From contig JBDRQT010000005.1 in the NCBI GenBank assembly GCA_043826135.1, positions 70,255 through 134,254 on the forward strand: a DNA stretch of 64,000 nt, written 5' to 3'. The DNA is from an archaeon. Its GTDB lineage: Archaea; Nanobdellota; Nanobdellia; Woesearchaeales; GW2011-AR15. The position numbers were made by a program, and so were the translations under genes. Positions 6,037 to 52,369 of the stretch are shown here, piece by piece. The notes below the pieces were generated by a model. It searched no databases, had not been told where the DNA came from, and was given only the letters and a program-made list of their open reading frames with translations. The stretch's first letter is position 1; every line of letters begins with the position of its first letter.

Positions 6037-9000
6037 ATGGTTGTGGGAAATAAATCACAGGCAACTCTTTATGTAATCATAGGTCTAACTTTAGTATTGG
6101 TTATTGGTTTCTTTCTTTCCCTAAATGCGCAGCAGAGATCGCAGGAGATTGCATCTGTTGCAGATTCCAGATCAGCTTTGGATGCTGAAAGGTTCAGCCT
6201 CGATTATTATATTGAAGGTTGTGTCCGCCAAACAGTCATCGATGCTGAGATTAAGTATGGCTTGCATAGGATTTGGGCAGCTCCGGAGATTGAAGCATAC
6301 ATTGAGAATAACCTTGGCAATTGCCTTGATGATTTCAGGTATTTCAAAGAAAGAGGATACCTTGTAAATAACGGAAATCTGGATGCGAAAGTAGATATCT
6401 CAAGGGAAGCTGTTGCTGTTACGATTGATCTTCCTGTCTATCTGAAGAAAGGAGAAATGGAAATCACCTATGACAGTAAGGTATACAGGCTTCCGTTGAC
6501 ATCTCTCGAAAGGCTGAACTTAAACGGTGAGACAAGGATTGTGTCATCTGACGGCACATTGATTCTGGAAATACCAGAGGGCACTGTTGTGACAGTTAAA
6601 GGCCAGAAGGTTGACCAGGTCGGAGTGCAATTATTGGACAGGCATTTCAATGCAATGCCAAACGATGTTGTCGCGGGAATGCTTGCATTTAACGGTATAC
6701 CTCATAAAGCAGAGTTTTCAAAACCAGTGAAAGTCACAAAATATTACCAGGAAAAAGATATTCCAATTTATGTCAGGGAGGAGGAATTAAGACTTGGCAC
6801 CTATGATTCTGATGTCGGCATATGGGTAGGTCTTCCAACAGAAGTTGATGCAGCAAATAACAAGATAACAACATATATTACACACTTCTCGCAGATGGCG
6901 ACTGTGAAGGATTGCGGAACAGAAGGCGAACCGGCTGTAATCACAAATACAATTGTCAGACAAGAATGTACTGGCTGCGAGGAGAAGTGGATTAAGGATT
7001 TGACATCAGAAATCAAATATTCACTGCCTTCACCGAAAGATTATTCCATAGACAAAACACAGAAATTGGGATTTGTACCTGAGTGTTTTGGTGAAGCGCC
7101 TGTTATTTCGCCTGATACAGGAATAACAAAAGAAGATACAGATACTCTGAAAAAAATTATTGCAATTGATGAAGCAGATTTTGATCATTGCTTTGGATTC
7201 TGTAGTGATACATCTAATAAAGACAAAAAAGACCCTAAATGCAACTGTGATTTATTCTATTATAAAGATTATTTTAGGCAAAAAGGTTTGCAAGACAAAG
7301 GCGGATTGCCTGAAGGCGGGACTGATTCGCAAAAACAAATAATATTCACTCTTGAAGACGGTAAATTTCAGGGTTATGATATATATGATGTTGATTTCAA
7401 GGAAAAAGGCGCTGCATGCGTTGCAGCATTAGAAAAAGATTTTGTGGTTGATTCTGTGGGCAATAATATCAACGTGGATACAACAGGAGTCTTGACTGAA
7501 GATAATGATAAAGCGGCGATTGCTATCAGTGTTGATTATTGCTCTGATAAAGATACATGCCAGATTGTTAAGCCTATTTTTATCAAACAGGAACCCAAAT
7601 TAAGGTTTGGATTTCAGGTTATCAATAGCCCGAGTGAAGATTCACCAGATACCTGTATCTCCGGTGGGGCAAAGGTTGAAATCGCTGGTGTCGGCGCACT
7701 AAATGCAGTTTATGGTTGTTCTGGAAGCGAAAGCGGTAAAATTGATTTTGTCAGGGGAGTATGCATGAAATGCGACGGGCAAATATGGCAGAAACAGGAT
7801 ATGAAAGAATGTTTCCCTGAAGGCAAGTGTGTCGGAGCCCTCATGGGTGTCGTAAGATGGAACGATAAAAATTGTGAAGAGTGCATGAGTTCAGGAGAAT
7901 GGAAGAAATTGGAAACACCTGAAAAATGCGTTTCATCTTGCGAAGAACCACAAGATTCAGTAGCATTGAATCCAACAAAAGCAATAATTGACATTACCGG
8001 CAGACCTGGTGATCCGCCTGAAAATGAAGAGAATAATATTGACTGGAAGAAGGTAGCGGGCTGGGCTGCAATTACAGTTGGCGTTGTAGCTATAGGAGTT
8101 GGGATTGCTTTAGCACTACCAGTGGTTTTGGCAGCGACTGGCCTAATGGCAGCAGGTGGTCTTGCATTTTTACCAGCACTTGCAATTGCAGGATATGGTA
8201 TTTCAAGCATAGCTATTCCAGGGTTAATTATTGGTGGGGGCATTATAACTGGCACTGCAGGAGGGTTTATATTAGCAAATTCTCAAGATGTAACTGACCA
8301 AAACGTACAACTCGCATCGTCTCCTCAGCAGGATATACAGCCTGATGCATCACAGGTAAATAGCCCTGCGCCAGGTGCTGCTTCAGATTCAAGATGTTTA
8401 TCAGGTTCAATTACTCAACCAGATATACCACCTGAACAAACTCTTACTGATGGCGCCAAAGATTGCAATGAAGCAGGCAATGTGAAAATATACACTCTTC
8501 TAACAGCTTCATGGGCAGAAACTGAAGATTGCAAAGGCAAAGGCTGCGAAGCAGGAAAATGTAAGACAGAAGCGACTGCTGAACCTGTGAAATGTGGGAA
8601 AGAAAATGAGCTCATCTGCAATCCAGGAGAGACATGCGATCCAACCACAAAAGAATGCAAGAAACCTGACACTGGATCTACTTCAAGTACTAGCTCCGCA
8701 CCGACTGGGTCTCTTCCGACAGTACCGCCTTCTACCCCACCACCAGCAGCACCAGTTGCAGCAGCACCATCACAACTTGGAGGTGCTTCTGCTTGCTCGC
8801 CAGCATGCTCTACAGACCAGGACTGCGTTGACGGAACATGCGTCGACAAGCCAAAGACATGCATTGAAGGCAATCCCACTTCACCATGCAAAGACATCAA
8901 TGATGCTTCTGTCCAAGGCAAACAATTCACAGTGCCAGGATCAATAAACACGTTAGATATGGATTTCTGTGACACATTCGGCTCATACTCAGGCGAAGAT

Positions 9001-10758
9001 AAATTTGAAATAATTAGTACTGCTGAGCTTGCAAACACCTGTTTTGTAAAAGTCCGTTCAGTTGATGCAATCGAAGGTGTAAACAGGGACTGGTATCTGA
9101 AATTCGATGATGTGTTTAGCGCAATACTTTCATGCAACATAGATTCAGACTGTGGAGGGAATTATGAGTGCAGGAACAATCTTTGCTATGAGAAAAAATT
9201 CGCACTCGTCGGACTTTATGATGTTCCAATAACGAAATTTGCTGAGGCAAAAAGTTATGGGGCTGAGCACCTAGGAACTTATTCAACGGACAATAGTCTG
9301 GGAGCAGAAGACTTCCTAAGATTGAATGATAATTTGTTCAAGACTTCTGGAAACAATCTTGATATTGAAAAAATAAGCCTGAACTATGAAGATGGAACAG
9401 CTTACTGGATAATAGATGATATATGCAATGATGAGAAATGGGATCTGTCTATTAATGATTTGACAGATTTATACACTGAACTAAAAACTCAAGCAAGTTC
9501 ATACGTTATGATAAATTTTGAGGATCTTAACTGTGCACTGGATTACCTCAATTTAGCAGATAAGCCAATAGCTGATGTTGCTATGTTTAAGGTTGATGTC
9601 GCGAGGCCGGATGATTACATAGGAAAGCAGTCAGCACTCGCTGAAGCAATAATAAAAGAGAGTATTGATAAAAAAATCCCAATGAAGATCTTGCCAATTG
9701 TAGATGTGAGCGAGGCAACTCCTGCATGGATATCAAAAACAGGTGAAGACCTGCTTGGAGAAAAAACAACAGGCGGGCTGTCTCCATTCTCAGGCCTGCT
9801 TTTTGGGCCGTATAATAAGATAAGACCGGAAGAAAAAGATGTACTCAGCTATGTATTCTGCAAAGCAAAGGAGATTTATCTTGAGCAGGATTGCAGCGCT
9901 GATCCCGCAGACCTGGTTGAAGAAGTGAAGATTGCATTTGTCTCCAATCTTGCAGATACAAATATTCTCTCTTTGGCACAAGGAAAAGATGTTGACCTGA
10001 TTGTATTATCCGGAAACATCGGAACACCTCTGTTCTCCAGCTCTATACCTTATCTTGGTGCACTTGGGCTTCTGGATAATGAAAATACACAATTCACAAG
10101 GATACCTGAGGGGATGGAGTGCTCTGGCCAGGATGGAGATATGATTGAATGCGAATATAAAGGAATCACCTTTGTTGTTTCAGGGGTCGGGATCTCTGCA
10201 ACATCAGGCCATGAAGATTTCATCAGATCAAGCATGAATGATCTTTCAGGTTGGGGAGTCTGTGTCTGGAGCAAGAATAGTTATCTTCTGAGAACTAGCG
10301 CAAAAGCGAATGCTGAAACACTAGCTCTAAAATATTATGATCTGTGCCTGGCAAAAGGAGCAATCATCGCAACAGGCTATGATCAAAGTTATGCAAGGAC
10401 AAAGACTATTACAGGTATGAGCCAAAATATTATGTATGCAGGATCACCTTCAATCATAACACTCGGGCGCAACAAGACAATGGTTTTCAATTCAGGCCTT
10501 GGAGGCATGGGATCAGATAGGTTTGACTGCAATCGGGGATACGGATACTGGGCAAGCATTTATACCAGCAATTACTATCTCAAGAACGGAATAGATCAGC
10601 AGAAATCATGCACAACTGATGCAGTTGCAAATTTCAAGAATGGAGCACTGTTTATCACATTCAACTATAATGAGGATCAGACAAAGGCTCATGGTGAGTT
10701 CATCACTGTTGATAATCAGGTGATGGACACCTTTGAAATCTCACGCGAAATCTCGTAA
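6037..10758 (+). CDS. Giant (1573 aa) Cys-rich surface protein, paralog 1: pilin-like N-terminus, shared N-module, internal TM block, Pro-rich linker, degenerate metallophosphoesterase-like C-terminus
   Basis: Uninterrupted 4.7-kb ORF. N-terminus MVVGNKSQATLYVIIGLTLVLVIGFF. Blocks EGCVRQTVIDAEIKYGLHRIW and GIWVGLPTEVDAANNKITTYITHFS are shared with the ORFs at 10805, 40794(-) and 47138. Confidence 0.85.
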   Translation: MVVGNKSQATLYVIIGLTLVLVIGFFLSLNAQQRSQEIASVADSRSALDAERFSLDYYIEGCVRQTVIDAEIKYGLHRIWAAPEIEAYIENNLGNCLDDFRYFKERGYLVNNGNLDAKVDISREAVAVTIDLPVYLKKGEMEITYDSKVYRLPLTSLERLNLNGETRIVSSDGTLILEIPEGTVVTVKGQKVDQVGVQLLDRHFNAMPNDVVAGMLAFNGIPHKAEFSKPVKVTKYYQEKDIPIYVREEELRLGTYDSDVGIWVGLPTEVDAANNKITTYITHFSQMATVKDCGTEGEPAVITNTIVRQECTGCEEKWIKDLTSEIKYSLPSPKDYSIDKTQKLGFVPECFGEAPVISPDTGITKEDTDTLKKIIAIDEADFDHCFGFCSDTSNKDKKDPKCNCDLFYYKDYFRQKGLQDKGGLPEGGTDSQKQIIFTLEDGKFQGYDIYDVDFKEKGAACVAALEKDFVVDSVGNNINVDTTGVLTEDNDKAAIAISVDYCSDKDTCQIVKPIFIKQEPKLRFGFQVINSPSEDSPDTCISGGAKVEIAGVGALNAVYGCSGSESGKIDFVRGVCMKCDGQIWQKQDMKECFPEGKCVGALMGVVRWNDKNCEECMSSGEWKKLETPEKCVSSCEEPQDSVALNPTKAIIDITGRPGDPPENEENNIDWKKVAGWAAITVGVVAIGVGIALALPVVLAATGLMAAGGLAFLPALAIAGYGISSIAIPGLIIGGGIITGTAGGFILANSQDVTDQNVQLASSPQQDIQPDASQVNSPAPGAASDSRCLSGSITQPDIPPEQTLTDGAKDCNEAGNVKIYTLLTASWAETEDCKGKGCEAGKCKTEATAEPVKCGKENELICNPGETCDPTTKECKKPDTGSTSSTSSAPTGSLPTVPPSTPPPAAPVAAAPSQLGGASACSPACSTDQDCVDGTCVDKPKTCIEGNPTSPCKDINDASVQGKQFTVPGSINTLDMDFCDTFGSYSGEDKFEIISTAELANTCFVKVRSVDAIEGVNRDWYLKFDDVFSAILSCNIDSDCGGNYECRNNLCYEKKFALVGLYDVPITKFAEAKSYGAEHLGTYSTDNSLGAEDFLRLNDNLFKTSGNNLDIEKISLNYEDGTAYWIIDDICNDEKWDLSINDLTDLYTELKTQASSYVMINFEDLNCALDYLNLADKPIADVAMFKVDVARPDDYIGKQSALAEAIIKESIDKKIPMKILPIVDVSEATPAWISKTGEDLLGEKTTGGLSPFSGLLFGPYNKIRPEEKDVLSYVFCKAKEIYLEQDCSADPADLVEEVKIAFVSNLADTNILSLAQGKDVDLIVLSGNIGTPLFSSSIPYLGALGLLDNENTQFTRIPEGMECSGQDGDMIECEYKGITFVVSGVGISATSGHEDFIRSSMNDLSGWGVCVWSKNSYLLRTSAKANAETLALKYYDLCLAKGAIIATGYDQSYARTKTITGMSQNIMYAGSPSIITLGRNKTMVFNSGLGGMGSDRFDCNRGYGYWASIYTSNYYLKNGIDQQKSCTTDAVANFKNGALFITFNYNEDQTKAHGEFITVDNQVMDTFEISREIS

Positions 10759-10804
10759 ACTTTATATACCACTCCATCTGTTAAAACATCAAGGTGGGGT
10801 TTCT

Positions 10805-13800
10805 ATGAAAGCACAGATGAGTATTTTTGTAATAGTTGGTATTGTGATCACAATAGTTATCGGCAGCTACTTCATGATGAGGTTAACCGATCAGCAGAAT
10901 AATCTTGGCCAGGCATCTGATTATGTTTTTGAGATGGGTTCTAAGCAGAGCTCTCTAAATGCTATAATGCAGGAATGTCTGAAGCAGCATGTGATTGCAG
11001 GTGAGCTTGAGTACGGGTTGCACAGGACGTGGAGCACCAGTCCCATCAGAGAATATATCAAAACGAACTTACCGGGCTGTATCCAGACTTTTGTGACACA
11101 GCAAGGATATAAGATGACAGCAGGAGAGCTCGAGGTCGTTGTTGATATCCAGCAGGAATCAGTTGTTGTTGATGTCCACTACCCCATCATGCTAGTCAAG
11201 CAGGACACGATTCTGAGATTTGAGCAGCAGACATATACTTTCCCTAGGATGACGATGGAGAAGATTGACCCTGAGAAGACAACAAGGGTTGTGTCGGCTG
11301 ACGGAACAATGATTGTGGAGATTCCTCCGGGGACAATTGCAACACTTAACGGAGAGCCAGTTGAGACTGTTGGTTTGAAACAGTTGGATAGAGAGTTTAA
11401 TGGTCTTAGAAATTCTGTTACAGGGGGTATGCTCGCATTCAACGGATATCCACACGGAACTAGGTTCTCCAAGCCTATAACTGTAATTCATTTTTATAAA
11501 GATGAAGATGTGCCAGTTGGAGTTAATGAAGAAGATTTAAGACTTGGTTATTATGATGACGTCTCAAAAATATGGAAAAGCTTGCCAACCATAGTTGATC
11601 CAGACAAAAACAAGATGGTTATGCAGACAATTCATTTTTCAGCCCAGCCAGGACTTCTTGTTCAATGTACAGAAGGTGCCACCTGGACTGCCATTACAGA
11701 GAAACTTGTTTATGAAAGATGCACGCCAGCTGAATGGCACCCTGATAAACAGATTTATGCGTGTCAGGATACAAAGCATGCTACCCCTACAACTACACCT
11801 GATGTATTATGGATAAAACAAGATGGGATTGATCCTGCATTATGCAGTGAAGGGAATGGATGCGGTTCTGAATGTCTGCCTCTTGATTCATGGAAAAGCA
11901 CAGCAGCCGGTCTCGGAGACTGTCATAAGTCAGTGGGTGGAGGAGAGACAGGCTGCGGAACATGCGAATGCTGTGACAATAAAGATGAAACAGATGAATC
12001 ATACTACAAAATGCCTATCTTTTATTATGCAGCAAACCCAACAGGAACATATACAGGCTATCCGGTTAACTTTGCAGGAGAAGGCAATTCATGCCAAGCA
12101 GGAAATCTTGAAGATGATAAAGTTAGTGTCCAGGAACTGCCATTGTTTGCAGACAAAGCAGAAGCAGGGGAAAATGCAAATAATATAAGAGTAGTAGCAA
12201 AAACATACAACGGAGAAACAGATTGTGCTATCTCTCGTATGGATAGCGGGATAACAGATATGCAATTCACATTTGATGAAGCATGTACTGATAGCCAGCC
12301 AAATTCATACTATGCAGGCTATGCAGAAATAACTGGTCAGGGATTTGGAGCAAAAGGCGCATTATATAGTTGTGAAGGCGTTGAACCCGGTACAACTCAA
12401 GATATGCCTCTCGCGACAGGTGGAGATGCTAATAAGATGGTCAGTGCTACTTGCACTTGTGGTGCTGCTAGTGCAGCTATTGCCTCAACAACTTTAGCAG
12501 GAGTTACAGGCACAACAGGATTTGGTTCTCAAGTTGCAAATGCTGGAGGTGTTGAACCAGGGTTAGGTTCTGAAGCTAGTTCAGGACCATGTGTATGGAT
12601 ACCCGCGGAAGGTGAAAAATGTGGTTCAGCAACCTGCACAGCAACTCAGACATGTGATAAATCAGCTGATCCAAATTCAGAGGATCCAGATCCCGCTAAG
12701 CAAGATCAGGATTCATGGGTCTGCAAGGATTCATCAGCAGGCGGTGGCGGCGGTTCAACATGCACCCCTCCATGTACAGGTCGTCAGACTTGTAAAGATG
12801 GAAAGTGTGTTGCAGGCGGCGGAGGCGGTGGTGGGGGAGCTGAATGCGGAACATCAAACGGGCCATGCGATATACCTGATTTTGATACACGTTTGAAAGG
12901 AAAATCATTTACAACTGACAAGGTAATAGACACAAGAGACAAGAAGATGTGCGATTCTTTTGGTGATCTTCCCTCAGGGTCAAAGCTCATTATAATGGAC
13001 CATGTCAAAAGAGGAGTGCAATGTTGGCTCTTTGTTGAACTCCAGCAAGTCACAGATGGTTTCAAGCCAGATCTTTATATTAGATATGATGATGTCAAAC
13101 ATCTCTTGCCGAGTGAAGGTGATGACAATGAGACAAAACCTTGCGAAAAAGATAGTGACTGCAAAGGCGGAAGATTCTGCCATCCTGTCAACAAAACATG
13201 CGTCGGAGCTGGAAGCCTGATACCTATTGTCGGTTTCTATGATGTGCCAACTGATAAGCTTCAGGAGGCAAAGGACTTTGGAGCAGGAACGCTTGCGTTC
13301 ATGGACAGCAATAATGAGGGAAGCATCCCGGTATCTGCTGCAAAGGAACCATTTTCTTTTGAAGTGATTACAAGGCTGAATGACACTGCATATAATAACA
13401 ACAAGGCAATAGCTGATTATGATTTTTCAAGCCATCTGAACAATGAATCAATCGGATACTGGATTCTAAGCGAACCTTGCAATACAGACAGATGGTCTCT
13501 CACATATGATAACATCGGCGGCCTCTATGATAAATTCAAGACAGCAAGCAAAAAGCCGGTGTTTGTCGATTTTGCCAATCTAAACTGCGCTCTTGATATG
13601 TTCAGCAGCGTACCTGATATCAGGGTTCTTGCTGATTATATCATGTTTGACATTAGAAGCACAATGACAAACGATGATATCAATGCAGAGCTAAGGCTTG
13701 TTTATGATGTAGGCAACAAAGCAAGGCTTGCCCAGGGAAATGCAAGAATTATAGCGTTTTTCGATATTGACGGCGCATCTCCAAAATGGATTAACGAGAC

Positions 13801-14872
13801 TGCCAGGAAGATATTAGAGAATGAGGATATAGACGGAATAATTATCTCGCCTTATTCAAGAGTTAGCCAGATGCAGTCAGATATCGGTTTTAGGAATACA
13901 ATTAATGAAGTGATGTGCCTTGCAAACCAAAAATACAGAGACATCCCATGTGAATTTGTGGCAGAGCTGCCTGATACACCACAAGAATATAAGGTAGTGT
14001 TCATCGCAAACCAGGGAACTAGTCAGGATGCATCAGATGTGCTAAGTCTGATTAACAGTAAGGAAGCAGATCTTATCATAATAGACGGAAATATGGGCTA
14101 TGACAAGCAGCCGTTTGAATGGGATAATCTCATGACTGAGACAAGTATACCTGTTCTTGCGACAATAGGTGATATGGACAAGGAAGACTGGCCATCGTAT
14201 GTCAGTCTGATTGAGCCGTATGATGATTCTGTTGAATGCACAGGGACTGCAGGAGACAAGCATGTTTGCAGGTTCAATAATGTGACATTTATTTTATCCG
14301 GAGTCGGCATTTCAAATACTGATGGCAACATTGATTTCATAACCGGTGCTGCAACAGCAGCAGATACGGCATGGAAATTCTGTGTCTGGCATAAAAGCAA
14401 TGATATGCTAAGAGTAAGTGACAGGAGTTCAGATGATACACTTGCACTCCCTTATTATAAGGCATGCTTAGATGCTGGAGCAGTAATTATCACTGGCTAT
14501 GATAACCAATACGCAAGGACAAAGGAAATAACCAACTTGGAAGATTCTGTCGGTTTCCTTGATGTGAATAGCGAGTTTGAAGTCAGGCCAGGCCATTCAA
14601 TTATTATTGACAATGGTCTTGGCGGCTTTGGAAGCGATCGGTATGACTGCGGCAAGGATGCAAACAATTGGTGGGCATCTATCTACACTCCAAACTACTA
14701 TATGAATAACGGACTACAAGTGTCAAAATCTTGCACTGAGGATACTACATCAGGATTTGCTCCTGGTGCATTGTTCTTCACCTTCAATTACCAAGGCAAT
14801 GAGAATAGGACACACGGAGAGTTCGTGAATGTAAATAATGTTGTTGTAGACAGCTTTGACTTGGTCAAATAA
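10805..14872 (+). CDS. Giant (1355 aa) Cys-rich surface protein, paralog 2: same architecture as 6037-10758 but without the internal TM block
   Basis: ATG at 10805 (MKAQMSIFVIVGIVITIVIGSYF) is preceded by AAGGTGGGG. It is collinear with paralog 1 (QECLKQHVIAGELEYGLHRTW; KIWKSLPTIVDPDKNKMVMQTIHFS; YWILSEPCNTDRWSL; GAVIITGYDNQYARTK). Poly-Gly runs lie around 12730-12850. Confidence 0.85.
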   Translation: MKAQMSIFVIVGIVITIVIGSYFMMRLTDQQNNLGQASDYVFEMGSKQSSLNAIMQECLKQHVIAGELEYGLHRTWSTSPIREYIKTNLPGCIQTFVTQQGYKMTAGELEVVVDIQQESVVVDVHYPIMLVKQDTILRFEQQTYTFPRMTMEKIDPEKTTRVVSADGTMIVEIPPGTIATLNGEPVETVGLKQLDREFNGLRNSVTGGMLAFNGYPHGTRFSKPITVIHFYKDEDVPVGVNEEDLRLGYYDDVSKIWKSLPTIVDPDKNKMVMQTIHFSAQPGLLVQCTEGATWTAITEKLVYERCTPAEWHPDKQIYACQDTKHATPTTTPDVLWIKQDGIDPALCSEGNGCGSECLPLDSWKSTAAGLGDCHKSVGGGETGCGTCECCDNKDETDESYYKMPIFYYAANPTGTYTGYPVNFAGEGNSCQAGNLEDDKVSVQELPLFADKAEAGENANNIRVVAKTYNGETDCAISRMDSGITDMQFTFDEACTDSQPNSYYAGYAEITGQGFGAKGALYSCEGVEPGTTQDMPLATGGDANKMVSATCTCGAASAAIASTTLAGVTGTTGFGSQVANAGGVEPGLGSEASSGPCVWIPAEGEKCGSATCTATQTCDKSADPNSEDPDPAKQDQDSWVCKDSSAGGGGGSTCTPPCTGRQTCKDGKCVAGGGGGGGGAECGTSNGPCDIPDFDTRLKGKSFTTDKVIDTRDKKMCDSFGDLPSGSKLIIMDHVKRGVQCWLFVELQQVTDGFKPDLYIRYDDVKHLLPSEGDDNETKPCEKDSDCKGGRFCHPVNKTCVGAGSLIPIVGFYDVPTDKLQEAKDFGAGTLAFMDSNNEGSIPVSAAKEPFSFEVITRLNDTAYNNNKAIADYDFSSHLNNESIGYWILSEPCNTDRWSLTYDNIGGLYDKFKTASKKPVFVDFANLNCALDMFSSVPDIRVLADYIMFDIRSTMTNDDINAELRLVYDVGNKARLAQGNARIIAFFDIDGASPKWINETARKILENEDIDGIIISPYSRVSQMQSDIGFRNTINEVMCLANQKYRDIPCEFVAELPDTPQEYKVVFIANQGTSQDASDVLSLINSKEADLIIIDGNMGYDKQPFEWDNLMTETSIPVLATIGDMDKEDWPSYVSLIEPYDDSVECTGTAGDKHVCRFNNVTFILSGVGISNTDGNIDFITGAATAADTAWKFCVWHKSNDMLRVSDRSSDDTLALPYYKACLDAGAVIITGYDNQYARTKEITNLEDSVGFLDVNSEFEVRPGHSIIIDNGLGGFGSDRYDCGKDANNWWASIYTPNYYMNNGLQVSKSCTEDTTSGFAPGALFFTFNYQGNENRTHGEFVNVNNVVVDSFDLVK

Positions 14873-15291: not shown

Positions 15292-15825
15292 CTACTTTCT
15301 ATATAATGTCAGGAACAGGAGCATCATCACAAATCCGGTAAGTGCCATCATCGGAAAAGTTACATAACCGAACTTGAACATCTCTATTGTTGTGCAGGAG
15401 ACTGCGCCAACTGAACATGTTGTTTGGATGGAAAGCCTCTGGATGATATAATGATAAGCAGCAAATACTGCTCCGATAGCTGACAAGGCGACTGCGTATC
15501 TGTAAGTATTTTTATCCTTATAAAATAGCCCAATTCCAAACACAATTGTTAGTGGATAATAGAAAATTCTTTGGAACCAGCATAGCTTGCACGGTTCAAA
15601 GTGCGCTATCTCAGAAAAGAACAGGCTTCCCAAAGTTCCTATGATAGCAACTATAATGGCAAATGCCAGATAATGTTTTTTTATATTCTTCTGATGCTCC
15701 TTAAGCAACCTTTTCCCGCTGAAGAGAATGATAAGGCTCAGACCTATAAACAGATCTCCTATCACAGTCAGTATTGCCAGAATGTTGATAATTTCCTGCA
15801 CTAGCATATTCCAAAGAAATCTCAC
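15292..15825 (-). CDS. DsbB/BdbC-family disulfide bond formation protein (membrane thiol oxidoreductase)
   Basis: FEPCKLCWFQRIFYYP (CxxC followed by QR, the DsbB/BdbC signature), a second Cys pair TTCSVGAVSCTT and 4 hydrophobic helices. The ORF-track start is GTG at 15825; the first ATG is at 15807. Confidence 0.7.
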   Translation of the reverse strand: MRFLWNMLVQEIINILAILTVIGDLFIGLSLIILFSGKRLLKEHQKNIKKHYLAFAIIVAIIGTLGSLFFSEIAHFEPCKLCWFQRIFYYPLTIVFGIGLFYKDKNTYRYAVALSAIGAVFAAYHYIIQRLSIQTTCSVGAVSCTTIEMFKFGYVTFPMMALTGFVMMLLFLTLYRK

Positions 15826-16541: not shown

Positions 16542-16967
16542 ATGGACTACAAACAACATAGTGATAGGTTATTTAGGCATTTGATTTCAATACCATTCAT
16601 TTGGATGATGATTTTCCCGCTAGTAATAATGGATTTTTTCCTGGAAATATATCATAGGATTTGTTTTCCACTTTATGGGATCGGACTAATTTCAAGATCC
16701 CAATATATCAAGATTGATAGGCATAGATTATCCTATCTAACTCTCTGGGACAAGGTAAACTGCGCATATTGCGGATATGCAAACGGTCTCACCAATTATG
16801 CATATGTGATTGCAGGAGAGACTGAAAAATACTGGTGCGGAATTAAACACGCAAAGCAGGAAGGATTCCATGAGCCTTTGCATCATAAAGGTTTTCTGGA
16901 ATATGGCGATAAAAAAGGGTTTGAGGAAAAATGCGCAGGGCAGGACTCGAACCTGCGAAGGCACTAA
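16542..16967 (+). CDS. Conserved-looking hypothetical membrane protein with CAYCGYANG / YWCGIKH motifs
   Basis: 141-aa ORF with an N-terminal hydrophobic helix and Cys motifs. The last ~36 nt overlap tRNA-Leu(CAA) in antisense. Confidence 0.5.
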   Translation: MDYKQHSDRLFRHLISIPFIWMMIFPLVIMDFFLEIYHRICFPLYGIGLISRSQYIKIDRHRLSYLTLWDKVNCAYCGYANGLTNYAYVIAGETEKYWCGIKHAKQEGFHEPLHHKGFLEYGDKKGFEEKCAGQDSNLRRH

Positions 16968-26454: not shown

Positions 26455-26471
26455 TCTAAATTAAAAAAAAA

Positions 26472-35946: not shown

Positions 35947-38900
35947 TCACTTGGTTTTTATCTGCCAATATTTGTTGGCATCATTTGTGCAGGAATATAT
36001 TTTGCCGCCGACTAATAGTTCTTTGCCACGAGCACTATCATCACAGGATACATAGTGTCCCTCACTACAAAGTTGATAGTTGTTGTTTGGATAAAGCAAA
36101 GGATTAGAGGATGTACATTTTGCTTCACATATTGTTCCCCAACTATGTGTAACAAGATCTTTATTATTGTCACTGCAAACGCAATTAAACTTTCCATCAT
36201 CTTTCTGGCCAGATGGGCACACTCTAACCCAATGAGGCGAAATACCATCGCAATTGAAAGTGACTCCATTAAGTGTTACTGAATGAGTGAGATCACCCCA
36301 ATTACTGCATGTAATACAAACGCCATTTGTATTAACTAACCCACCTGATTCACAATCTTGACTCGGAGAGAGAGTTTGTTCGGATGAAGGTTGGGCACCA
36401 GAATCGGTTACACATTTTCCACCATCAATTTTTTCGGTTGCAGCGCAACATAATACCAACTTATTATTATTCCAACAACTTTGTTTTGCATCTGTGATGA
36501 ATGTTTCTGAGCATTTATCAGATGAAGGGGATACATCGCATGGGTTGCTTATAGTGGGAAGATCTTGACCGGTAAGGCTTGATTGAATACATTGTACACT
36601 GTTTCCAAATGTATGAGCAGCAAAACCATTCGCAGTATCGCATCCACATCCGTCTTTTTTCGGACCGGGAATTGAATTTATTGCGCATTGCTTGCAAGAT
36701 TCATCTTTGTATACAGCATTACCTTCGCATTCACATATATTTAATTCTGCATTCCATGTAGCACCGTTGCAGACAGGTGTTGGAGTTGAAGTTGCTGTAG
36801 ATGCCACTCCTGCTTTTATGGTACAGGTAGTAGCAGTATTACCAACAAGTTCATAATTGTCTGGGCAACATACCACAACATCACCATTTATACAGGTCTT
36901 ATCTGCACCAGTCAAGAAAACATTATTCTTACAGAATAATCCATGACCAGAATCTCCATTGCCACACGCTTCTCCAGTATAGGAAGGCAGTTCCGTAGCA
37001 CGTTCTGCAAGAGTATTATAAACGCATTGGGTTTGTCCATTTGATAATTTAATATGCTTATACCCACTATTACAAACACACTCTCCATTTTGAATAGATC
37101 CCTGTATAGTGCAATCACCTTCTTTTAAATTAGTATCAGCAGGCGCACCAGAAGCAGATGCAGCACACGTCCATAACTCCCCAGTCAAATATGTAATTGC
37201 TGCATTTGGATCACTACATTGATAATAGTTGGGATCTCCATTCACCTGGCATTGGTATCCTCCGCTAACTATAATGTCTCTTGTCTTTTCTGAAGTAGAT
37301 ATGCACTCAGGCAGATCAAGAATACACGATCTTGATGACCTGCCATCGTCATGCACTTCTTTGAGTGTGTAGGGTTCCACACACTGTTGTTTAGGTGTGC
37401 TTCCGTCCAGACATTCTTCCTGGTTTCCTCCTGAGATTTCCAATGTCGTTGCACCTGATTCACAACCTGGTAAATTTCTATCAATTATCTCTTGAGGCAC
37501 GCAATAACCATTCTGATATTGTGTATTTAGATCACATTCATATTTCACAACCTGGCTTCCTTTAAGCTTATTGCCTTCATCATCTGTAAGAATGTGCAAG
37601 CATGCGTGAGAGCCATCAACCTGCGGTTCAAATGCATTATTGCTGCTGCAGTCACCCGTGTCTTTTAGTGAACCGCTCCCAAGACCGCTCTTTGGGACAC
37701 ATAGTTCCCCAGATTTTATGTATGTATCATCGCATTCATACATGGGAGTTCCATCTTTGCTGCATCTGTGGCTGTTAGCTGTTTCTGTGGAGACTAAGTT
37801 ACTAACATCTTTACACGAATATTTATCTTTAAACTCCTGCAATGAAACACAGCCATCTTCGGTTGAATACTGATTAACTGCACAGCAATATAATATCTTA
37901 TTCTCAGTTGGGCTTCCAGATTTTTTGTCTGTGCATTTGTATTGATAATTGCTTGGCTGGAAGACTGAGCACCTTCCGGAACCACTGCTAACAGTAGTAG
38001 CCTGTGCTTCTTCTGGACATGGCATGACAGCAGTTTTATCTTTGCCATCATTATTGTAATCACAGAGTCCATCACCATTTGTTCCAAGGAAGTAACTTGT
38101 GCTGGGTACTCCAGGAGCCATAGTTGTTTCGCAGCACACACTAAGTGGGAATACCTGCCTCTGACCACCAGGAGTGGGTGTGCAATAGCATGCACCCTTC
38201 ATTTTTCCATCTTTATCATAATTCTGGACAGTATTAGATGGTCCATCATTTTGTCCATAGCAGGTAAGGCCGCTTGCGCTTTGTGAATAGTAGCTGGGGA
38301 AGGTTGTAGCTATAACATGCTCACAATATTTTGGATTATTGTCTGGACTATCAGTTGAACCATCATTCCATTTTCCCTCATCAATTAAGGTATTCTTTGC
38401 CGCGGTCATATCAGAATTCAGATTATGAAATGTGACAAAACAACAGTCGTTAAATTCAAGAGGTATTTTTTTACCATCACTATCATGGCATAGGCATTCA
38501 CCAATAAAACTTCCATCATCCGCTTTTCTATAATTGCCGGTTTTCAAATCAGGAATATTTCCATTCGGTCCATCCCATTCCCCATAACAATTTTTATCAA
38601 ACAAAGTTCCTTTTTGTTTATCCAGGAACTCATCGTAGGTTTCATAAAAATGCGGGGGCTCGACAACATTGACACCATCATCAAAAAATATTTTCGCCCT
38701 CACCTGTGGGCAGACATTCTTTTTATCAGGAAATTCATCATTTGTGTATTTTGCATACAATATGTTTTCAGTGCGAGCATTGAACCTAATTTCACTTGGA
38801 GCAGGCGGATTTGGAAGTGGTATAGAGTTCAGGGTTCGCTCTTTTATGATATTATTTTGTAAGTCGTCTGGATTGAAATAAACTAGAACACCATTCTGCC

Positions 38901-40794
38901 CGAAATCATCATATAATGGTTCAGCAACAGTATAGCCTATATTGAAATTCTCTGGCATGCACGCATTGCTTTTCGAAAAGATATAGAATTGGATATTGCC
39001 GGATCCCTCAAAAGCAGTGTCATCGGAAAGATATGCAGCTCGCTCTTCACATTCAGGCAATCCTGAATTTCCGTCTATCTTAATCATACTATACAGTTCT
39101 AGTTTAGCTTTTGAAGTTTCTTCACTGTTCGGATTGCTAGAATATGAGTTTTTATAGTTATTATATAAAACAAGTAAAACTGGGAATGATTTCTCAGAAG
39201 TAATACCTTTTTCCTTAAAATATTCTTCAAGTGCAGTAGCATCTGGAATTGATTTTGTATTGAATTCAGTATCAATGGATTTAACTTTATCGTTCAGTCC
39301 AAGACCATACATCTGGCATTCCTTTTCGGTTTGGAATGCAGTCAAATCAGGCGCTGAAACACTTTGGACATAATATCCAACAGGTAGAGACAATGGTTCT
39401 AAAGATATCCAGATGGTTGTGTAATCTTTATATGCATTGAAGTCAAATGTCCTGCCTCTCATCTCAAAAGGTGCCTCAGGAGTATGGAAACCTGAAGGAT
39501 TTACTTTAATATCAGCTGTATAACGCTTATCTTCGGCCGCCGCTGGCTGAACCTCAGTTAGTGTATCACCATGATTTTCGAATGTAACTTCGACTGGCGC
39601 AGGCAAAATATTAACAGGCAATTTGTCAGAAGCCGCAATTTCTCCATCTAACTTAGAATCATCGTTATTTTTCTTAACATAGTCCTCAAAAGCCACGGGA
39701 TCAAATTCATTCATCTTCAATTCATCAATCTTTTTTGGTGACACGTAATATTTAGTCCCATCCAATGCTGTGTATTTGGTCCACTCACAATATTCCTTGT
39801 TCGTTTCTTCTTCTGCCCTTGGGTCATATCCTGTAGGCCAATATTTTGGTAGATAAATGAATCCTAAATCCATCTCAGCTGGTTTTTCCCTAGTCAAACT
39901 TTTTTCTCCATCGTCGGATTTAACATAGCAGTCAATCACGATCCCATAATATGAAAAATGCTTGATTGTAGCGGAGACTGAAGATTCGTCCGCAGACAAG
40001 CTGCTTGGTATTGAATTCCAGATACCAGTCTCTTCATTATAATAAGCAATTGATAATTTATTTAAATCATATCCATCAGGCAGATCCTCAGGTCTGAAGC
40101 GTATGCTGAGTTTCATCCCATCATTTATTACAGCACCGCTTGGCTGAAGATTATAGATAGTATTTCCAACTACTATGCCGTTGAATTGGTTATTGAACTT
40201 TGCATCTTCAATTTTTATAGATACCATCTCAACCGGTTTTCCATCAACTGTAACTTCAGTATTTTCAGGCAAGCTGAGAATAGCATTTTTATCAACAGAT
40301 TGCAGGCTTAATTCCTTGTCTGCTATCCCCTTATTTAGGGAAACAAAGTTGGTTCTTCCTGTGTTATAAGCAAATTCATCAAAAACATATTCAGATGAGT
40401 CTCTTTTTAATATGAATGGATAATTCAGTGTGGCAATAACCTTTTCATCACTTATTTCAAGGTAAGTAGTCGGAAATTTTTCCTCTAACTGATATCCTTG
40501 ATTCTCATAAACAGAAAGGTCAAGGCAAGTATCTATCTTTTCTGTCACATAACTCTCAATTAGATTGCCAGAGCCGTCTAATCCATATAATAAAACACCT
40601 TCATCAGTCAGCTCTTTGAGGCATCCTTCAGCATATTTCTCAACAGAATCTTTTATATTTCCGCTGAGGCCGAGCGAGGAGATAGACGAACTAATCTCCT
40701 GCTTGGGTGCATTCATGATTGAATAAGTACCAATCCCAACCAGCACCAACAACACAACACCGACTATGACAAAAGGAGTAACCTGCGCTTTCAT
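35947..40794 (-). CDS. Giant (1615 aa) Cys-rich surface protein, paralog 3: pilin-like N-terminus, shared N-module, and ~1000 aa of EGF-like Cys-rich repeats
   Basis: MKAQVTPFVIVGVVLLVLVGIGTY is preceded by GGGTGGGG. Shared blocks are YAEGCLKELTDEGVLLYGL and GIWNSIPSSLSADESSVSATIKHFS. The C-terminal two thirds are dense in C-x-C / CxxxxC patterns (e.g. NGECVCNSGYKHIKLSNGQTQCV). Confidence 0.85.
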   Translation of the reverse strand: MKAQVTPFVIVGVVLLVLVGIGTYSIMNAPKQEISSSISSLGLSGNIKDSVEKYAEGCLKELTDEGVLLYGLDGSGNLIESYVTEKIDTCLDLSVYENQGYQLEEKFPTTYLEISDEKVIATLNYPFILKRDSSEYVFDEFAYNTGRTNFVSLNKGIADKELSLQSVDKNAILSLPENTEVTVDGKPVEMVSIKIEDAKFNNQFNGIVVGNTIYNLQPSGAVINDGMKLSIRFRPEDLPDGYDLNKLSIAYYNEETGIWNSIPSSLSADESSVSATIKHFSYYGIVIDCYVKSDDGEKSLTREKPAEMDLGFIYLPKYWPTGYDPRAEEETNKEYCEWTKYTALDGTKYYVSPKKIDELKMNEFDPVAFEDYVKKNNDDSKLDGEIAASDKLPVNILPAPVEVTFENHGDTLTEVQPAAAEDKRYTADIKVNPSGFHTPEAPFEMRGRTFDFNAYKDYTTIWISLEPLSLPVGYYVQSVSAPDLTAFQTEKECQMYGLGLNDKVKSIDTEFNTKSIPDATALEEYFKEKGITSEKSFPVLLVLYNNYKNSYSSNPNSEETSKAKLELYSMIKIDGNSGLPECEERAAYLSDDTAFEGSGNIQFYIFSKSNACMPENFNIGYTVAEPLYDDFGQNGVLVYFNPDDLQNNIIKERTLNSIPLPNPPAPSEIRFNARTENILYAKYTNDEFPDKKNVCPQVRAKIFFDDGVNVVEPPHFYETYDEFLDKQKGTLFDKNCYGEWDGPNGNIPDLKTGNYRKADDGSFIGECLCHDSDGKKIPLEFNDCCFVTFHNLNSDMTAAKNTLIDEGKWNDGSTDSPDNNPKYCEHVIATTFPSYYSQSASGLTCYGQNDGPSNTVQNYDKDGKMKGACYCTPTPGGQRQVFPLSVCCETTMAPGVPSTSYFLGTNGDGLCDYNNDGKDKTAVMPCPEEAQATTVSSGSGRCSVFQPSNYQYKCTDKKSGSPTENKILYCCAVNQYSTEDGCVSLQEFKDKYSCKDVSNLVSTETANSHRCSKDGTPMYECDDTYIKSGELCVPKSGLGSGSLKDTGDCSSNNAFEPQVDGSHACLHILTDDEGNKLKGSQVVKYECDLNTQYQNGYCVPQEIIDRNLPGCESGATTLEISGGNQEECLDGSTPKQQCVEPYTLKEVHDDGRSSRSCILDLPECISTSEKTRDIIVSGGYQCQVNGDPNYYQCSDPNAAITYLTGELWTCAASASGAPADTNLKEGDCTIQGSIQNGECVCNSGYKHIKLSNGQTQCVYNTLAERATELPSYTGEACGNGDSGHGLFCKNNVFLTGADKTCINGDVVVCCPDNYELVGNTATTCTIKAGVASTATSTPTPVCNGATWNAELNICECEGNAVYKDESCKQCAINSIPGPKKDGCGCDTANGFAAHTFGNSVQCIQSSLTGQDLPTISNPCDVSPSSDKCSETFITDAKQSCWNNNKLVLCCAATEKIDGGKCVTDSGAQPSSEQTLSPSQDCESGGLVNTNGVCITCSNWGDLTHSVTLNGVTFNCDGISPHWVRVCPSGQKDDGKFNCVCSDNNKDLVTHSWGTICEAKCTSSNPLLYPNNNYQLCSEGHYVSCDDSARGKELLVGGKIYSCTNDANKYWQIKTK

Positions 40795-47137: not shown

Positions 47138-48541
47138 ATGCGAAAAGCACAGCTGTCTGTTTTTGTAATTTTTGGACTATTAATTATGCTCGCAATCCTT
47201 ATCTTTCTTAGTAATCCACCTAAGATTCAAAGCTCTGTGATTGAATTCTCTACTGAACTTGGCAGGCTCGGTCCATATTTCAGGGAATGCTGCAAGCTCT
47301 CGATGCTGGACGCTAATTCAAGATATGGGCTCCATTCTTCCACAAAGGACGATTATGAGCCATATCTGATCGCAAAGGTTGATGATTGCATGTCTCCATT
47401 TCTTCAGGATATTGCTGTCAGGGGGATGGATGTCGAAAGGGTGGATACTCCGTCTGCACTGCTTGAGATAAATGACCTTAATGCGATCGTGACCATAAAA
47501 TATCCTGTGAAGGTTTCCACAAAATCCGACTCTTACATATTTCCTGATTATGTCCAGAAATTCGAGAGAGTTACCATTATTGATGAAAAGAACATCAATA
47601 ATGCAGTCTCAGCAGATACAAATTTTATTTTGTCAGCACCAGACGGGATAAGAATTTATGGACCTTACGACGAGGAATTTGCTAATCTTTACATTAAAGT
47701 GTCAGACAAGAGAGAGATTGGATGCGATGAACTTCTCGGAAATCTGGTATATGGTGTTTATCCTTTGGGCTATTATTCAGATGAACCTATAACAATCAAG
47801 CTCGATATAGATAAGATAGCGCCCTGGCTTACAGACAGGGACAAATTAAGGATAGCTTGGCAGGATCCGGATTCAAAGAAATGCACTTTCCTCGAGAATA
47901 GCAAATATAAAGATGGAATGCTCCAGGCTGATACAAAGTATATCACTTTCTTCGGGATTGGCAAGCCCTCAGTTTCCACATCAGGATATCCCTATCAATC
48001 TACAGGAGAAGGAACATCCGGTTCATTCAACACACCGGCAGGTGATTTTGAGCCTGTTCAAGGGACCGCGCAGGTAATATATGACGGAATAAAAGCAGAG
48101 ATGGGCGGTACATATTCTCTTTTTAAGAATAATGAATGCGTGCCTCCCGGAGCATATTGTTTTACCGGCTGGTCTGCAAGATGCCCAAACGGAGAAGCGG
48201 CAATATATTGCAATGATGCAATCTACAGCATTGATGAAGGTGCACTCAATACTTTGTTCCGGCATGAGATAACGCATAATCTGCAGCAGAATAATAAGTG
48301 CGCTTTTGATACAGCAAAATCCGAATGGGGTGCTGAATATTATTCCGGAAGCAATTACTATAATTTCGCGATAACATCTCCAACGATAACAAGGTCAGGG
48401 ATGTCTGCCGCAGAAGTCGGCACAGAATTAGAAAAAGCAGGATGCATAAAGTCTGAACTCCTCGATGCTGCTTTTTGCAAAGGCGGAAATATCGGGTCAT
48501 ATACGCAAAAATGTGATGTCGAGATTACAGGTTACAGTTAG
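47138..48541 (+). CDS. Short (467 aa) member of the giant-protein family: pilin-like N-terminus, shared N-module, and a C-terminal HExxH (putative Zn-metallopeptidase) region
   Basis: MRKAQLSVFVIFGLLIMLAILIF; YFRECCKLSMLDANSRYGLH; LLEINDLNAIVTIKYPV; LRIAWQD...DTKYITFFG. HEITH at nt 48263-48277 lies in LNTLFRHEITHNLQQ. Confidence 0.75.
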   Translation: MRKAQLSVFVIFGLLIMLAILIFLSNPPKIQSSVIEFSTELGRLGPYFRECCKLSMLDANSRYGLHSSTKDDYEPYLIAKVDDCMSPFLQDIAVRGMDVERVDTPSALLEINDLNAIVTIKYPVKVSTKSDSYIFPDYVQKFERVTIIDEKNINNAVSADTNFILSAPDGIRIYGPYDEEFANLYIKVSDKREIGCDELLGNLVYGVYPLGYYSDEPITIKLDIDKIAPWLTDRDKLRIAWQDPDSKKCTFLENSKYKDGMLQADTKYITFFGIGKPSVSTSGYPYQSTGEGTSGSFNTPAGDFEPVQGTAQVIYDGIKAEMGGTYSLFKNNECVPPGAYCFTGWSARCPNGEAAIYCNDAIYSIDEGALNTLFRHEITHNLQQNNKCAFDTAKSEWGAEYYSGSNYYNFAITSPTITRSGMSAAEVGTELEKAGCIKSELLDAAFCKGGNIGSYTQKCDVEITGYS

Positions 48542-51295: not shown

Positions 51296-51811
51296 ATGAA
51301 AAAAAGGGGGCAGGTTTCAGTAGAGTATATACTTATTGTCGCGATTGCAATGATGATAATTCTTCCAGGGATTTTTTTGTTCAGGAACTATATCTTCGAA
51401 TCTAATGACCAAATCCTTGAATCAAGACTGACGGAAATATCGCTTAGCCTTCTTGGAAAAGCCAGAAAAATGTATTACTACGGCCCTCCTTCAAAATCTA
51501 CTCTGCAGCCGGACATGCCACCGCAGGTAGATAATTTTTATATACAGAGATTTGGCGACGAATATTTTCTTATCTTTGTCATCCTCACAAATAACGGAAG
51601 GCAGAATGTCGAATTTTCGTCAGAAGTTCCTATTGTTGTAGGAGAAAAAGACATTGTCTGCGATATTCCTTGCGAAGGAACATGTGAATGTTTTACAGCA
51701 AGGCATTATTCAGAAGGCCTGAAGAATCTTCAGGTGGAAGCATCTGATGATTGTCCAGCATCTCCATTCTGTGTTATCATTACAGAGATATCACCGGATT
51801 TGCCAGAATGA
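51296..51811 (+). CDS. Class III signal peptide (archaeal type IV pilin-like, DUF361-type) protein 1
   Basis: MKKRGQVSVEYILIVAIAMMIILPGIFLF shows R-G/Q cleavage-type motif, QxSxEY and a hydrophobic helix. First gene of a 5-gene coupled operon. Confidence 0.7.
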   Translation: MKKRGQVSVEYILIVAIAMMIILPGIFLFRNYIFESNDQILESRLTEISLSLLGKARKMYYYGPPSKSTLQPDMPPQVDNFYIQRFGDEYFLIFVILTNNGRQNVEFSSEVPIVVGEKDIVCDIPCEGTCECFTARHYSEGLKNLQVEASDDCPASPFCVIITEISPDLPE

Positions 51812-52365
51812 AAAATGCCCAGATCATAAGCATGGATTTTATCTTGACATTTGTGATATTCATGTTCGGCATGTCAATTTTTTTCTTCGCGCTAAATGAC
51901 AGCTACTTTGCAGTTTCTCCCGGTCTTGATGTTAGCGCTGATTTGGTCTTTTCAAAGCTGGAAAACATTTATGAACCTGAATATAGTTTCATAAGATCAT
52001 TTCATTTCGACAAAAATTTTATCTTTCTGCTTCTTACGAATTATAATGCCTCGAAAGCATATGAACTTTATTTCCAAGAATATGAAAATCCAGCATCTTT
52101 CTCAAAAATCGACTACTGTTTATTTTTGATGAATTCAACAAATGGGAGAAAAATAAATCTTAATTTTGCAGCATATAAAACAACCCGGGATAAATACGAA
52201 ATTATTATGGGAGATGATTCAAAGTGTGGTGATAATCCACAGCAGACTTATGTAGAGCTTCCTAAATGCCCAAAAGGTGTTGAATCAGTGATTGCATCAA
52301 AGCCAGTACTTTATGAAAAAGGGATACTCCAGTTAAATGTGCTTATGTGCGCGAAAAAAAACTAG
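51808..52365 (+). CDS. Pilin-like protein 2 (class III signal-like N-terminus)
   Basis: The ATG at 51808 overlaps the previous stop (ATGA). MKNAQIISMDFILTFVIFMFGMSIFFFAL. Confidence 0.6.
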   Translation: MKNAQIISMDFILTFVIFMFGMSIFFFALNDSYFAVSPGLDVSADLVFSKLENIYEPEYSFIRSFHFDKNFIFLLLTNYNASKAYELYFQEYENPASFSKIDYCLFLMNSTNGRKINLNFAAYKTTRDKYEIIMGDDSKCGDNPQQTYVELPKCPKGVESVIASKPVLYEKGILQLNVLMCAKKN

Positions 52366-52369
52366 AAAA

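Follow-up and report, generated by a model that had tools for sequence, protein, structure and literature searches.

In a 64,000-nucleotide stretch of a Woesearchaeales contig (JBDRQT010000005.1, assembly GCA_043826135.1), hereafter the window, we analyzed four paralogous genes, A to D, which encode three giant proteins and one short protein that share an N-terminal module. The module probably anchors large Cys-rich surface proteins and lets them be shed. All four open reading frames are present where an initial annotation, made from the DNA alone, had placed them (Table 1), and NCBI lists each product as a 'hypothetical protein'. The description of the proteins as Cys-rich was borne out, with 54, 46, 78 and 13 cysteines in A, B, C and D (3.4, 3.4, 4.8 and 2.8%) as compared to 0.85% in the 18 other open reading frames of the window. 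Genes A and B follow each other with 46 nt between the A stop codon and B. The mechanical open reading frame of B opens at a TTG (10733) upstream of the MKAQ start, and the ATG of the latter is preceded by GGTGG 8 nt on its 5' side. An identical 11-mer, TATATACCACT, is found on the plus strand at 6015-6025 and 10763-10773, 12 nt 5' of the A start and 32 nt 5' of the B start. Including matches with one mismatch, it occurs four times in the window versus 0.92 expected, and it was not found upstream of C or D. This 11-mer may be a promoter element shared by A and B, in which case B could be transcribed independently.

Table 1. Positions of the four module genes, their parts and neighbouring features in the window (P numbers are our identifiers of individual proteins; a slash within a sequence marks a predicted cut)
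Feature	Position	Strand	Details
Gene A	6037..10758	+	1573 aa; MFH2019923.1, ABIJ34_00765; in NCBI, start at GTG 6043, 1571 aa
A signal	6037..6126	+	class III-like, MVVGNK-S/Q-ATLYVIIG..., and hydrophobic helix; predicted prepilin-peptidase site after Ser7
A N-module	6037..6921	+	signal/anchor, helical part with invariant Cys62/Cys96, ZU5/GAIN_B-like beta-sandwich (predicted)
A putative autoproteolytic site	6883..6891	+	H283-F284-S285; predicted cut between F and S
A hydrophobic stretch	8044..8283	+	aa 670-749, 80 uncharged Gly/Ala/Ile-rich residues, mid-protein
A C-terminal module	8788..10755	+	common to A, B and P0008
Gene B	10805..14872	+	1355 aa counted from MKAQ; MFH2019924.1, ABIJ34_00770
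B N-module	10805..11668	+	MK-A/Q-MSIFVIVG; Cys58/Cys92
B H277-F278-S279	11633..11641	+	from motif conservation and structure model
B C-terminal module	12755..14869	+	common to B and A
DsbB-like disulfide-forming membrane protein	15292..15825	-	PF02600, E = 1.2e-12; 420 nt downstream of B
Gene C	35947..40794	-	1615 aa; MFH2019951.1, ABIJ34_00925
C N-module	39925..40794	-	MK-A/Q-VTPFVIVG; Cys58/Cys90
C H279-F280-S281	39952..39960	-	followed by YYGIVIDC; closest fit to family post-site consensus
Gene D	47138..48541	+	467 aa, short paralog; MFH2019961.1, ABIJ34_00975
D N-module	47138..47974	+	MRK-A/Q-LSVFVIFG
D Y268-I269-T270	47939..47947	+	stands where H-F-S is in the paralogs
D HEITH (HExxH) motif	48263..48277	+	kept in P0137 and P0151
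Pilin-like gene run	51296..54638	+	five small genes with K/R-[G/A/S]-Q type N-termini; operon-like

In a multiple alignment, the four proteins are collinear over an N-terminal module of about 290 residues. Pairwise identities amount to 38% between A and B (E = 4e-64), 29% between A and C (E = 1e-29) and 24% between C and D (E = 5e-12). The N-termini and shared blocks quoted in the initial annotation were all recovered in this alignment, except that the 'HFS' block attributed to all four proteins is present in A, B and C, whereas D reads Y-I-T at this place. A hidden Markov model (HMM) of the module, searched against the six-frame translation of the window, detected exactly these four copies (E = 1e-105 to 9e-74) and no further one at E <= 10. 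Comparison with family databases gave the module no name: full-length A, B, C and D matched no Pfam or NCBIfam family at E <= 0.1, and 27 N-modules yielded only scattered single chance matches in Pfam at E <= 10, none of them to ZU5, GPS, FIIND or Nucleoporin2. PDB sequence searches with A, C and a profile of the N-module likewise returned nothing meaningful.

We extended the analysis to 1.84 billion cluster representatives; an HMM-based survey of the module's distribution had been proposed in the initial annotation. This exhaustive search returned 7,300 representatives at E <= 1e-3, 1,504 at E <= 1e-10 and 239 at E <= 1e-30, revealing a large family with variable C-terminal partners. Family composition is described below from the best 150 representatives and motif conservation from 120. 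In most of the best 150, the module occupies residues ~1-290; the others start within it, as if truncated at the N-terminus, and full lengths vary between 169 and 1,691 aa. Because only three of the 150 have a hydrophobic segment beyond the N-terminal helix, this helix should be the sole membrane anchor. All named relatives are 'hypothetical protein' entries of archaeon, Nanoarchaeota or Woesearchaeota metagenome-assembled genomes (MAGs). A narrow family alignment found six loci in reference genomes, belonging to Candidatus Woesearchaeota and unclassified archaeal MAGs, two of them titled Methanosarcinales, and no loci in viral contigs, while a word-indexed homolog search retrieved only two to three proteins, even with a 27-sequence profile. 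Judged by sequence, the module thus represents a large, unannotated family of predicted surface proteins that, by its named sources, belongs to DPANN-type archaea (Woesearchaeota/Nanoarchaeota). A full-text literature search returned no paper that joins DPANN with GAIN domains or describes the module family. The module is also missing from surveys of archaeal type IV pili, which do refer to large adhesin-like proteins bearing class III signals.

Tandem arrays of module genes are present in related archaeal MAGs, where the encoded proteins reach 1945 aa. One locus (L002) carries three such genes (379-2844, 5995-10212 and 12277-end) and another (L003) carries two (120-5957 and 5995-end). Tandem expansion combined with swapping of the cargo, as we term the region following the module, appears to characterize the family in general. 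An RNase J gene lies ahead of the module gene in four loci (L004-L007), with a MarC-like gene alongside in two of them (L005 and L007). In the window, the corresponding region (2700-5964) contains an extra gene of 447 aa without Pfam match (4621-5964, minus strand) between RNase J and A.

Regarding the cargo itself, the initial annotation had stated that the proteins diverge completely after the module. This view has to be revised for A and B, as residues 918-1570 of A and 651-1355 of B form a common C-terminal module of ~650 aa (32% identity, E = 9e-107), and the post-module regions of both proteins fall into the same 28-member cargo class upon single-linkage clustering. A profile of this C-terminal region from A, B and P0008 found nothing meaningful among PDB sequences. 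Motifs picked out by eye ('NQG', 'DLIxxGN', 'GxxD', 'CxWxK', 'TGYD') had raised the idea of a degenerate metallophosphoesterase; a profile search gave it no support and we do not claim it. The cargo of C, with 4.8% Cys, is common only to C and P0023, and that of D, given its HExxH motif, is a possible zincin-type metalloprotease. Overall, the cargo regions of 106 proteins comprise about 19 unrelated sequence classes. Few of them are recognized by Pfam, and the functions assigned are all enzymatic, namely Peptidase_C39_2 (three proteins), NAGPA (two proteins), GH25, Metallophos, GDSL lipase, DSPc and PhoD, with one further match to a domain of unknown function. Gene A additionally encodes an 80-residue hydrophobic stretch in the middle of the protein, and none as long occurs in the 150 family representatives. 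It could form several membrane passes, an odd number of which would place the Cys-rich C-terminus on the wrong side, or could be a membrane-inserting, fusion-peptide-like element. Just past the A/B pair, whose products have ~50 cysteines each, and a tRNA-Leu lies the gene of a DsbB-like membrane protein. This neighbourhood is suggestive in that it fits an oxidized, extracellular Cys-rich cargo.

At its N-terminal end, the module carries a signal resembling that of prepilins (class III). Across the 120 representatives, the consensus reads [KR][KR][G/A/S]-Q-x-[S/T]-x-[F/Y], followed by a hydrophobic run of ~20 residues. Position -2 is K/R in 113 sequences and position -1 a small residue in 115 (47 Gly, 35 Ala, 33 Ser), followed by Gln at +1 (109), S/T at +3 (106), F/Y at +5 (114), Ile at +7 (85) and Gly at +9 (105). 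The initial annotation had assigned a class III signal to all four proteins on the basis of the FlaFind-type pattern [KR][GA][LIFQMVED][ILMVTAS]. The family-wide conservation strengthens this assignment, and B, C and D fit the pattern, whereas A, reading K-S-Q, does not. Genuine pilin-like genes are also present in the window. The run of five small genes starting 2.7 kb past D encodes N-termini such as MKKRGQVSVEY..., MRKSQISFEF... and MKNAQIISMDF..., and its gene at 51296-51811 passes the Pfam cut-off for PF04021 (Class_IIIsignal). Given that this run carries the same signal, the organism should make class III signal substrates. The last gene of the run (53736-54638) combines a pilin-type N-terminus with a cohesin domain (E = 3.4e-10), which suggests that this predicted pilin docks a dockerin-like partner. 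A 187-aa multi-pass membrane protein encoded nearby (55541-56104, minus strand) was considered as a divergent prepilin peptidase; it has no Pfam match at E <= 1, and the idea gained no support.

The opposite end of the module is marked by a second conserved signature. In B numbering, Cys58 and Cys92 are invariant (120/120) and Trp257 is nearly so (118/120), and the module closes with His277 (113/120), Phe278 (106/120) and Ser/Thr279 (120/120; 66 Thr, 54 Ser). This H-F-[S/T] motif is followed by x-[F/Y]-[A/G/S]-[V/I]-V and then by Cys288 in 89 of the 120 sequences. Structure prediction and Foldseek comparison, which the initial annotation had also recommended, were carried out for A and B, using shallow alignments of 5 and 8 rows. 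The AlphaFold model of A (residues 1-296; mean predicted local distance difference test (pLDDT) score 76.7) shows a long N-terminal helix, a low-confidence break at residues 37-42, a second helix and an all-beta domain from ~109 to 283. With this whole N-module as query, Foldseek returned no match at E <= 1e-3, the search being dominated by the long helix; the match of highest probability was ankyrin ZU5A-ZU5B (0.91). For B, we left out the helices and modelled residues 96-310 (mean pLDDT 76.6). Ankyrin ZU5 domains then made up 16 of the top 17 matches with probabilities of 0.91-1.00, the best being 4d8o (E = 5.7e-4). Superposition with 3kbu_D gave a template-modelling (TM) score of 0.63 on the target and a root-mean-square deviation of 3.9 A over 164 columns (probability 1.0). 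The remaining one of the 17, within the same range of probability, was the CD97 structure 8ikj (E = 3.6e-3), a GAIN-containing adhesion G-protein-coupled receptor (GPCR). From rank 18 on, the probability dropped to 0.15 and all E-values were >= 0.28. In the B model, His277 ends strand 175-182, and Phe-Ser occupies the turn that leads into a short strand (188-190). According to these models, the beta part of the module resembles a ZU5/GAIN_B-like sandwich, the resemblance being structural only. The earlier statement that the shared module is no named domain therefore holds for Pfam and NCBIfam, but has to be qualified for the beta part, which has a ZU5/GAIN-like fold in the models.

Both the predicted fold and the terminal motif recall proteins that cleave themselves. 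PIDD cuts itself at HF/S directly after each ZU5 domain, CARD8 and NLRP1 are cut at SF/S in a ZU5-like domain with the fragments staying associated, and at such autoproteolytic ZU5/FIIND sites the Ser is the nucleophile and the Phe a buried anchor (PMC3210808). The ZU5(-UPA)/FIIND domains of PIDD, UNC5CL, NLRP1 and CARD8 are the best structural match to the archaeal module and resemble it in having HF/S (or SF/S) directly after the sandwich and an effector C-terminal to the cut, bound to the N-terminal fragment. However, they act in cytosolic eukaryotic signalling, whereas the archaeal family is predicted to be extracellular, has no recognizable UPA or death-fold domain and matches neither Pfam ZU5 (PF00791) nor FIIND.

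A second comparison is offered by the GAIN-like MAIN domains of bacteria and archaea, which are cut between F and S of HFS (H-x-S/T) in a beta-turn and whose fragments stay non-covalently bound, holding domains for adhesion and hydrolysis at the cell surface (bioRxiv 10.64898/2026.05.12.724683). In that survey, which covered RefSeq Select, virtually all MAIN proteins have the order signal peptide - cargo - MAIN - wall anchor, as in adhesion GPCRs (bioRxiv 10.64898/2026.05.12.724683). Proteins such as B. subtilis YfkN (Brogan & Rudner) share with the archaeal family an extracellular beta-sandwich, defined by fold and motif, with H-F-S or H-x-[S/T] in the turn between the last strands, as found in A, B and C but not in D. 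Both groups also comprise very large surface proteins with variable adhesion or hydrolytic domains, for which a non-covalent tether and release are proposed. In contrast to MAIN proteins, the archaeal family follows the order anchor - domain - cargo, with 147 of the 150 representatives lacking a second hydrophobic segment, uses a class III signal helix instead of a Sec signal plus wall anchor (sortase, SLH), and has a helical part, presumably disulfide-stapled, ahead of the sandwich. Owing to this reversed order, the fragment leaving the cell would start with the post-cleavage strand. In the parts of the MAIN supplementary tables that were searched, structure-based entries carry the label 'ZU5' where a MAIN domain is expected, no entries from Woesearchaeota or Nanoarchaeota were found, and 'ZU5' is given as the first domain of a few Bathyarchaeota proteins (bioRxiv 10.64898/2026.05.12.724683). 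The latter, as far as those tables go, suggest that N-terminal placement may exist elsewhere in archaea. By analogy, the polarity of the module family resembles that of cytosolic ZU5-UPA proteins, while its location and role would resemble those of MAIN proteins.

The GAIN/GPS region of latrophilin and CD97 is likewise related in appearance, as reflected by the 8ikj match, the H-x-[S/T] cut site and a helical subdomain preceding the beta subdomain. Moreover, the tethered peptide of latrophilin (TNFAVLM) resembles the post-site sequence [T/S]-x-[F/Y]-[A/G/S]-[V/I]-V of the family. The Cys-x-Cys and Trp pattern of GPS is, however, absent in the archaeal proteins, for which Pfam GPS gives no match, and adhesion GPCRs place their 7TM anchor after the cut, whereas the archaeal anchor precedes the domain. 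With respect to the signal, sugar-binding proteins of the Sulfolobus bindosome and the 'modular' pilins PilB/PilC of S. sanguinis carry a prepilin-type leader on a large functional domain. There, as proposed here, leader and helix anchor or display a large domain rather than build a fibre shaft; the module proteins are far larger and form a separate family. No bindosome or modular pilin protein is known to combine such a signal with an autoproteolytic domain.

Taken together, the fold, the motif and its position, the extracellular location and the variable cargo point to one kind of self-cleaving device. We favour the interpretation, to which we assign a probability of roughly 0.55, that the module is an N-terminally anchored, self-cleaving holder for interchangeable C-terminal cargo, with an order opposite to that of published MAIN proteins. 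If the 'HFS' block is read as the signature of an autoproteolytic site, one would expect not a fixed adhesin but cargo that is cleaved, held non-covalently and possibly releasable. What the data show is the homology of the family and its size, the conserved motifs, the similarity in fold and the genomic neighbourhood; the two cleavages, the tether without covalent bond, the release of the cargo and the function in the organism are inferred, as follows. From N- to C-terminus, the holder would comprise the class III signal, a hydrophobic helix of ~22 residues, a variable linker, a two-helix part that the two invariant cysteines (Cys58-Cys92 in B) may staple through a disulfide, and the ZU5/GAIN_B-like beta-sandwich with H-F-[S/T] at the end of its second-to-last strand. 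Upon export, a prepilin peptidase would take off the short leader before Gln, leaving the hydrophobic helix to serve as anchor, embedded in the membrane or perhaps part of a pilus. Folding and oxidation, involving the dozens of cargo cysteines, would occur outside the cell. The Ser/Thr of H-F-[S/T] would then attack the preceding peptide bond, resulting in an N-O acyl shift and a cut between Phe and Ser/Thr, the reaction known for the ZU5 domain of PIDD, for Nup98 and for GAIN and bacterial MAIN domains. As the new cargo N-terminus, [S/T]-x-[F/Y]-[A/G/S]-[V/I]-V, would contribute the final strand of the sandwich, the cargo should stay attached, with its Cys-rich mass held non-covalently on a membrane-bound (or pilus-borne) stub of ~275 residues until a pulling force or unfolding of the stub frees it. 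Adhesion-like or enzymatic, such cargo would suit an archaeon holding on to, or digesting, something outside.

Several observations weigh against this holder model. In terms of sequence, nothing links the module to Pfam ZU5, GPS or FIIND or to PDB chains, and its structural match is of moderate quality, with a query-normalized TM score of about 0.45 and a best E-value of 5.7e-4. The segment following the motif is modelled at low confidence (pLDDT 64 falling below 50 in B), and the proposed equivalence of H-F-[S/T] to the ZU5/GAIN site is based on its domain-end position and the motif. The ankyrin ZU5 domains that provide the best structural matches are not known to be autoproteolytic, and the Cys located ~9 residues past the site could engage in a disulfide bond that keeps the fragments covalently joined. 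One of the four paralogs departs from the motif altogether, D having lost both His and Phe and carrying Tyr-x-Thr instead, as do its subfamily relatives P0137 and P0151. Because of this loss, D is probably non-cleaving and may represent a fixed, uncleaved variant that kept the fold and carries an HExxH cargo. Concerning the leader cleavage, PF04021 does not score on A, B, C or D, the Ser at -1 puts A outside the FlaFind-type pattern, and Glu is absent at +5 in all four proteins, while the two clearest pilin genes of the window carry Glu at +5/+6. Finally, no gene for a prepilin peptidase, pilus ATPase or platform protein was found in the 64-kb window and ~12 kb of flank.

The best-surviving alternative, possible though somewhat unlikely, is that the proteins are giant adhesins with a prepilin signal that sit, as 'modular pilins', in or atop a type IV pilus-like fibre, the N-module serving as a rigid stalk with an uncut H-F-[S/T]. 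This proposal accounts for the class III-type motif kept across the family, agrees with the pilin operon located 2.7 kb past D and with the large adhesin-like class III-signal proteins known around archaeal pilus loci, and could draw on the ankyrin ZU5 domains, which are not known to cleave. However, none of the four genes is within the pilin operon, and Foldseek revealed no pilin fold past the hydrophobic helix in either the A or the B model. Furthermore, a variable linker, seen in the family alignment and poorly modelled in A, parts this helix from the globular part. The initial annotation is upheld for the pilin-type signal, but it did not contain the likely self-cleaving ZU5/GAIN-like domain, which we regard as the key feature. 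A fixed stalk also makes it hard to explain in structural terms why Ser/Thr is fully conserved next to a near-invariant His-Phe, a combination that matches proven autoproteolytic sites. A role as adhesin or in host attachment, as put forward in the initial annotation, would be conjectural, and the recognizable family cargos are enzymes.

We consider it improbable that the proteins are plainly membrane-anchored single chains, with an uncleaved Sec/YidC signal anchor and an unprocessed K-[G/A/S]-Q. At its length, the hydrophobic stretch could form a stable transmembrane helix, and the absence of a prepilin peptidase gene from the window and its ~12 kb of flank, like the lack of PF04021 matches, would be expected in this case. 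Nevertheless, the positive-inside rule covers the K/R only, leaving the 91% Gln at +1, the small residue at -1 and the S/T at +3 unexplained, and the near-invariant Gln after a small residue therefore argues for more than a plain anchor. The same signature is present on bona fide pilin-like genes of this genome, and in methanogens the EppA-type prepilin peptidase typically acts on substrates with Gln at +1. Very improbable, in our view, are S-layer or cell-wall structural proteins with the N-module as lattice-forming or membrane-anchoring domain: large, seemingly abundant, Cys-rich extracellular proteins in several copies would suit such a role, and DPANN S-layers are poorly known, but A to D have no similarity to S-layer families in Pfam, NCBIfam or the PDB, the hypervariable and partly enzymatic cargos of the family are unlike lattice proteins, and four different paralogs lie within 64 kb. 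A phage-derived protein was discarded, as no supporting evidence was found.

Beyond the module genes, the window encodes further envelope-related features. At its start, 105-956 (plus strand) encodes the C-terminal portion of a 1033-aa protein whose start lies upstream of the window (L009 6729-9830). The full protein combines a Sec-type signal with an HEFSHH (HExxH) motif and, at its C-terminus, a transmembrane helix bearing a basic tail. By these sequence features, it represents a second, unrelated type of predicted large surface protein, anchored at the opposite end. The products of two adjacent, overlapping genes without Pfam match (43833-44495 and 44492-45106, minus strand; 220 and 204 aa) each have a basic N-terminus and a single hydrophobic helix, and resemble paralogous surface proteins with a membrane anchor. 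An operon at 24026-28432 (minus strand) comprises an ABC ATPase, a 422-aa CARDB-domain protein and two MacB/FtsX-type permeases, and is preceded by a TrmB/MarR-like regulator (28429-28902). It may constitute an export or extraction system for envelope components. In addition, the window has three tRNA matches, two of them long. These Rfam matches, 132 nt at 16932-17063 and 160 nt at 21815-21974 (both minus strand), were not called by ARAGORN; their length makes them most likely archaeal tRNAs with introns. Together with the Woesearchaeota and unclassified archaeal loci closest to the module genes, they make the small-genome DPANN-type archaeon assumed in the initial annotation a reasonable guess.

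The module merits a profile of its own, which would label thousands of proteins and mark where the variable cargo begins. The family has at least about 1,500 distinct members, and the largest surface proteins of DPANN archaea are now annotated only as 'hypothetical'. Knowledge of the means by which DPANN archaea attach to their hosts and exploit them is sparse, and for this family the architecture described here is a concrete and testable proposal. In a speculative extension of the holder model, which we regard as unlikely in its full form, DPANN archaea would have joined a pilin export signal with GAIN/ZU5 self-cleavage, which elsewhere occur apart, in a force-triggered device of reversed polarity for host delivery or attachment. 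If so, a giant cargo held by one beta-strand would be pulled off upon binding to the host cell and left on or in the host envelope, where the 80-residue hydrophobic insert of A might come into play, and the bare stub, or the newly exposed strand of the cargo, could act as a contact signal. Such a device would be peculiar to episymbiotic archaea and would parallel the mechanics of adhesion GPCRs. The holder model itself would extend the idea of GAIN-like domains as releasable tethers to a new lineage, to a class III signal helix as anchor and to the opposite polarity, and would bear on the question of whether self-cleaving domains are ancient, general mechanical 'break points'.

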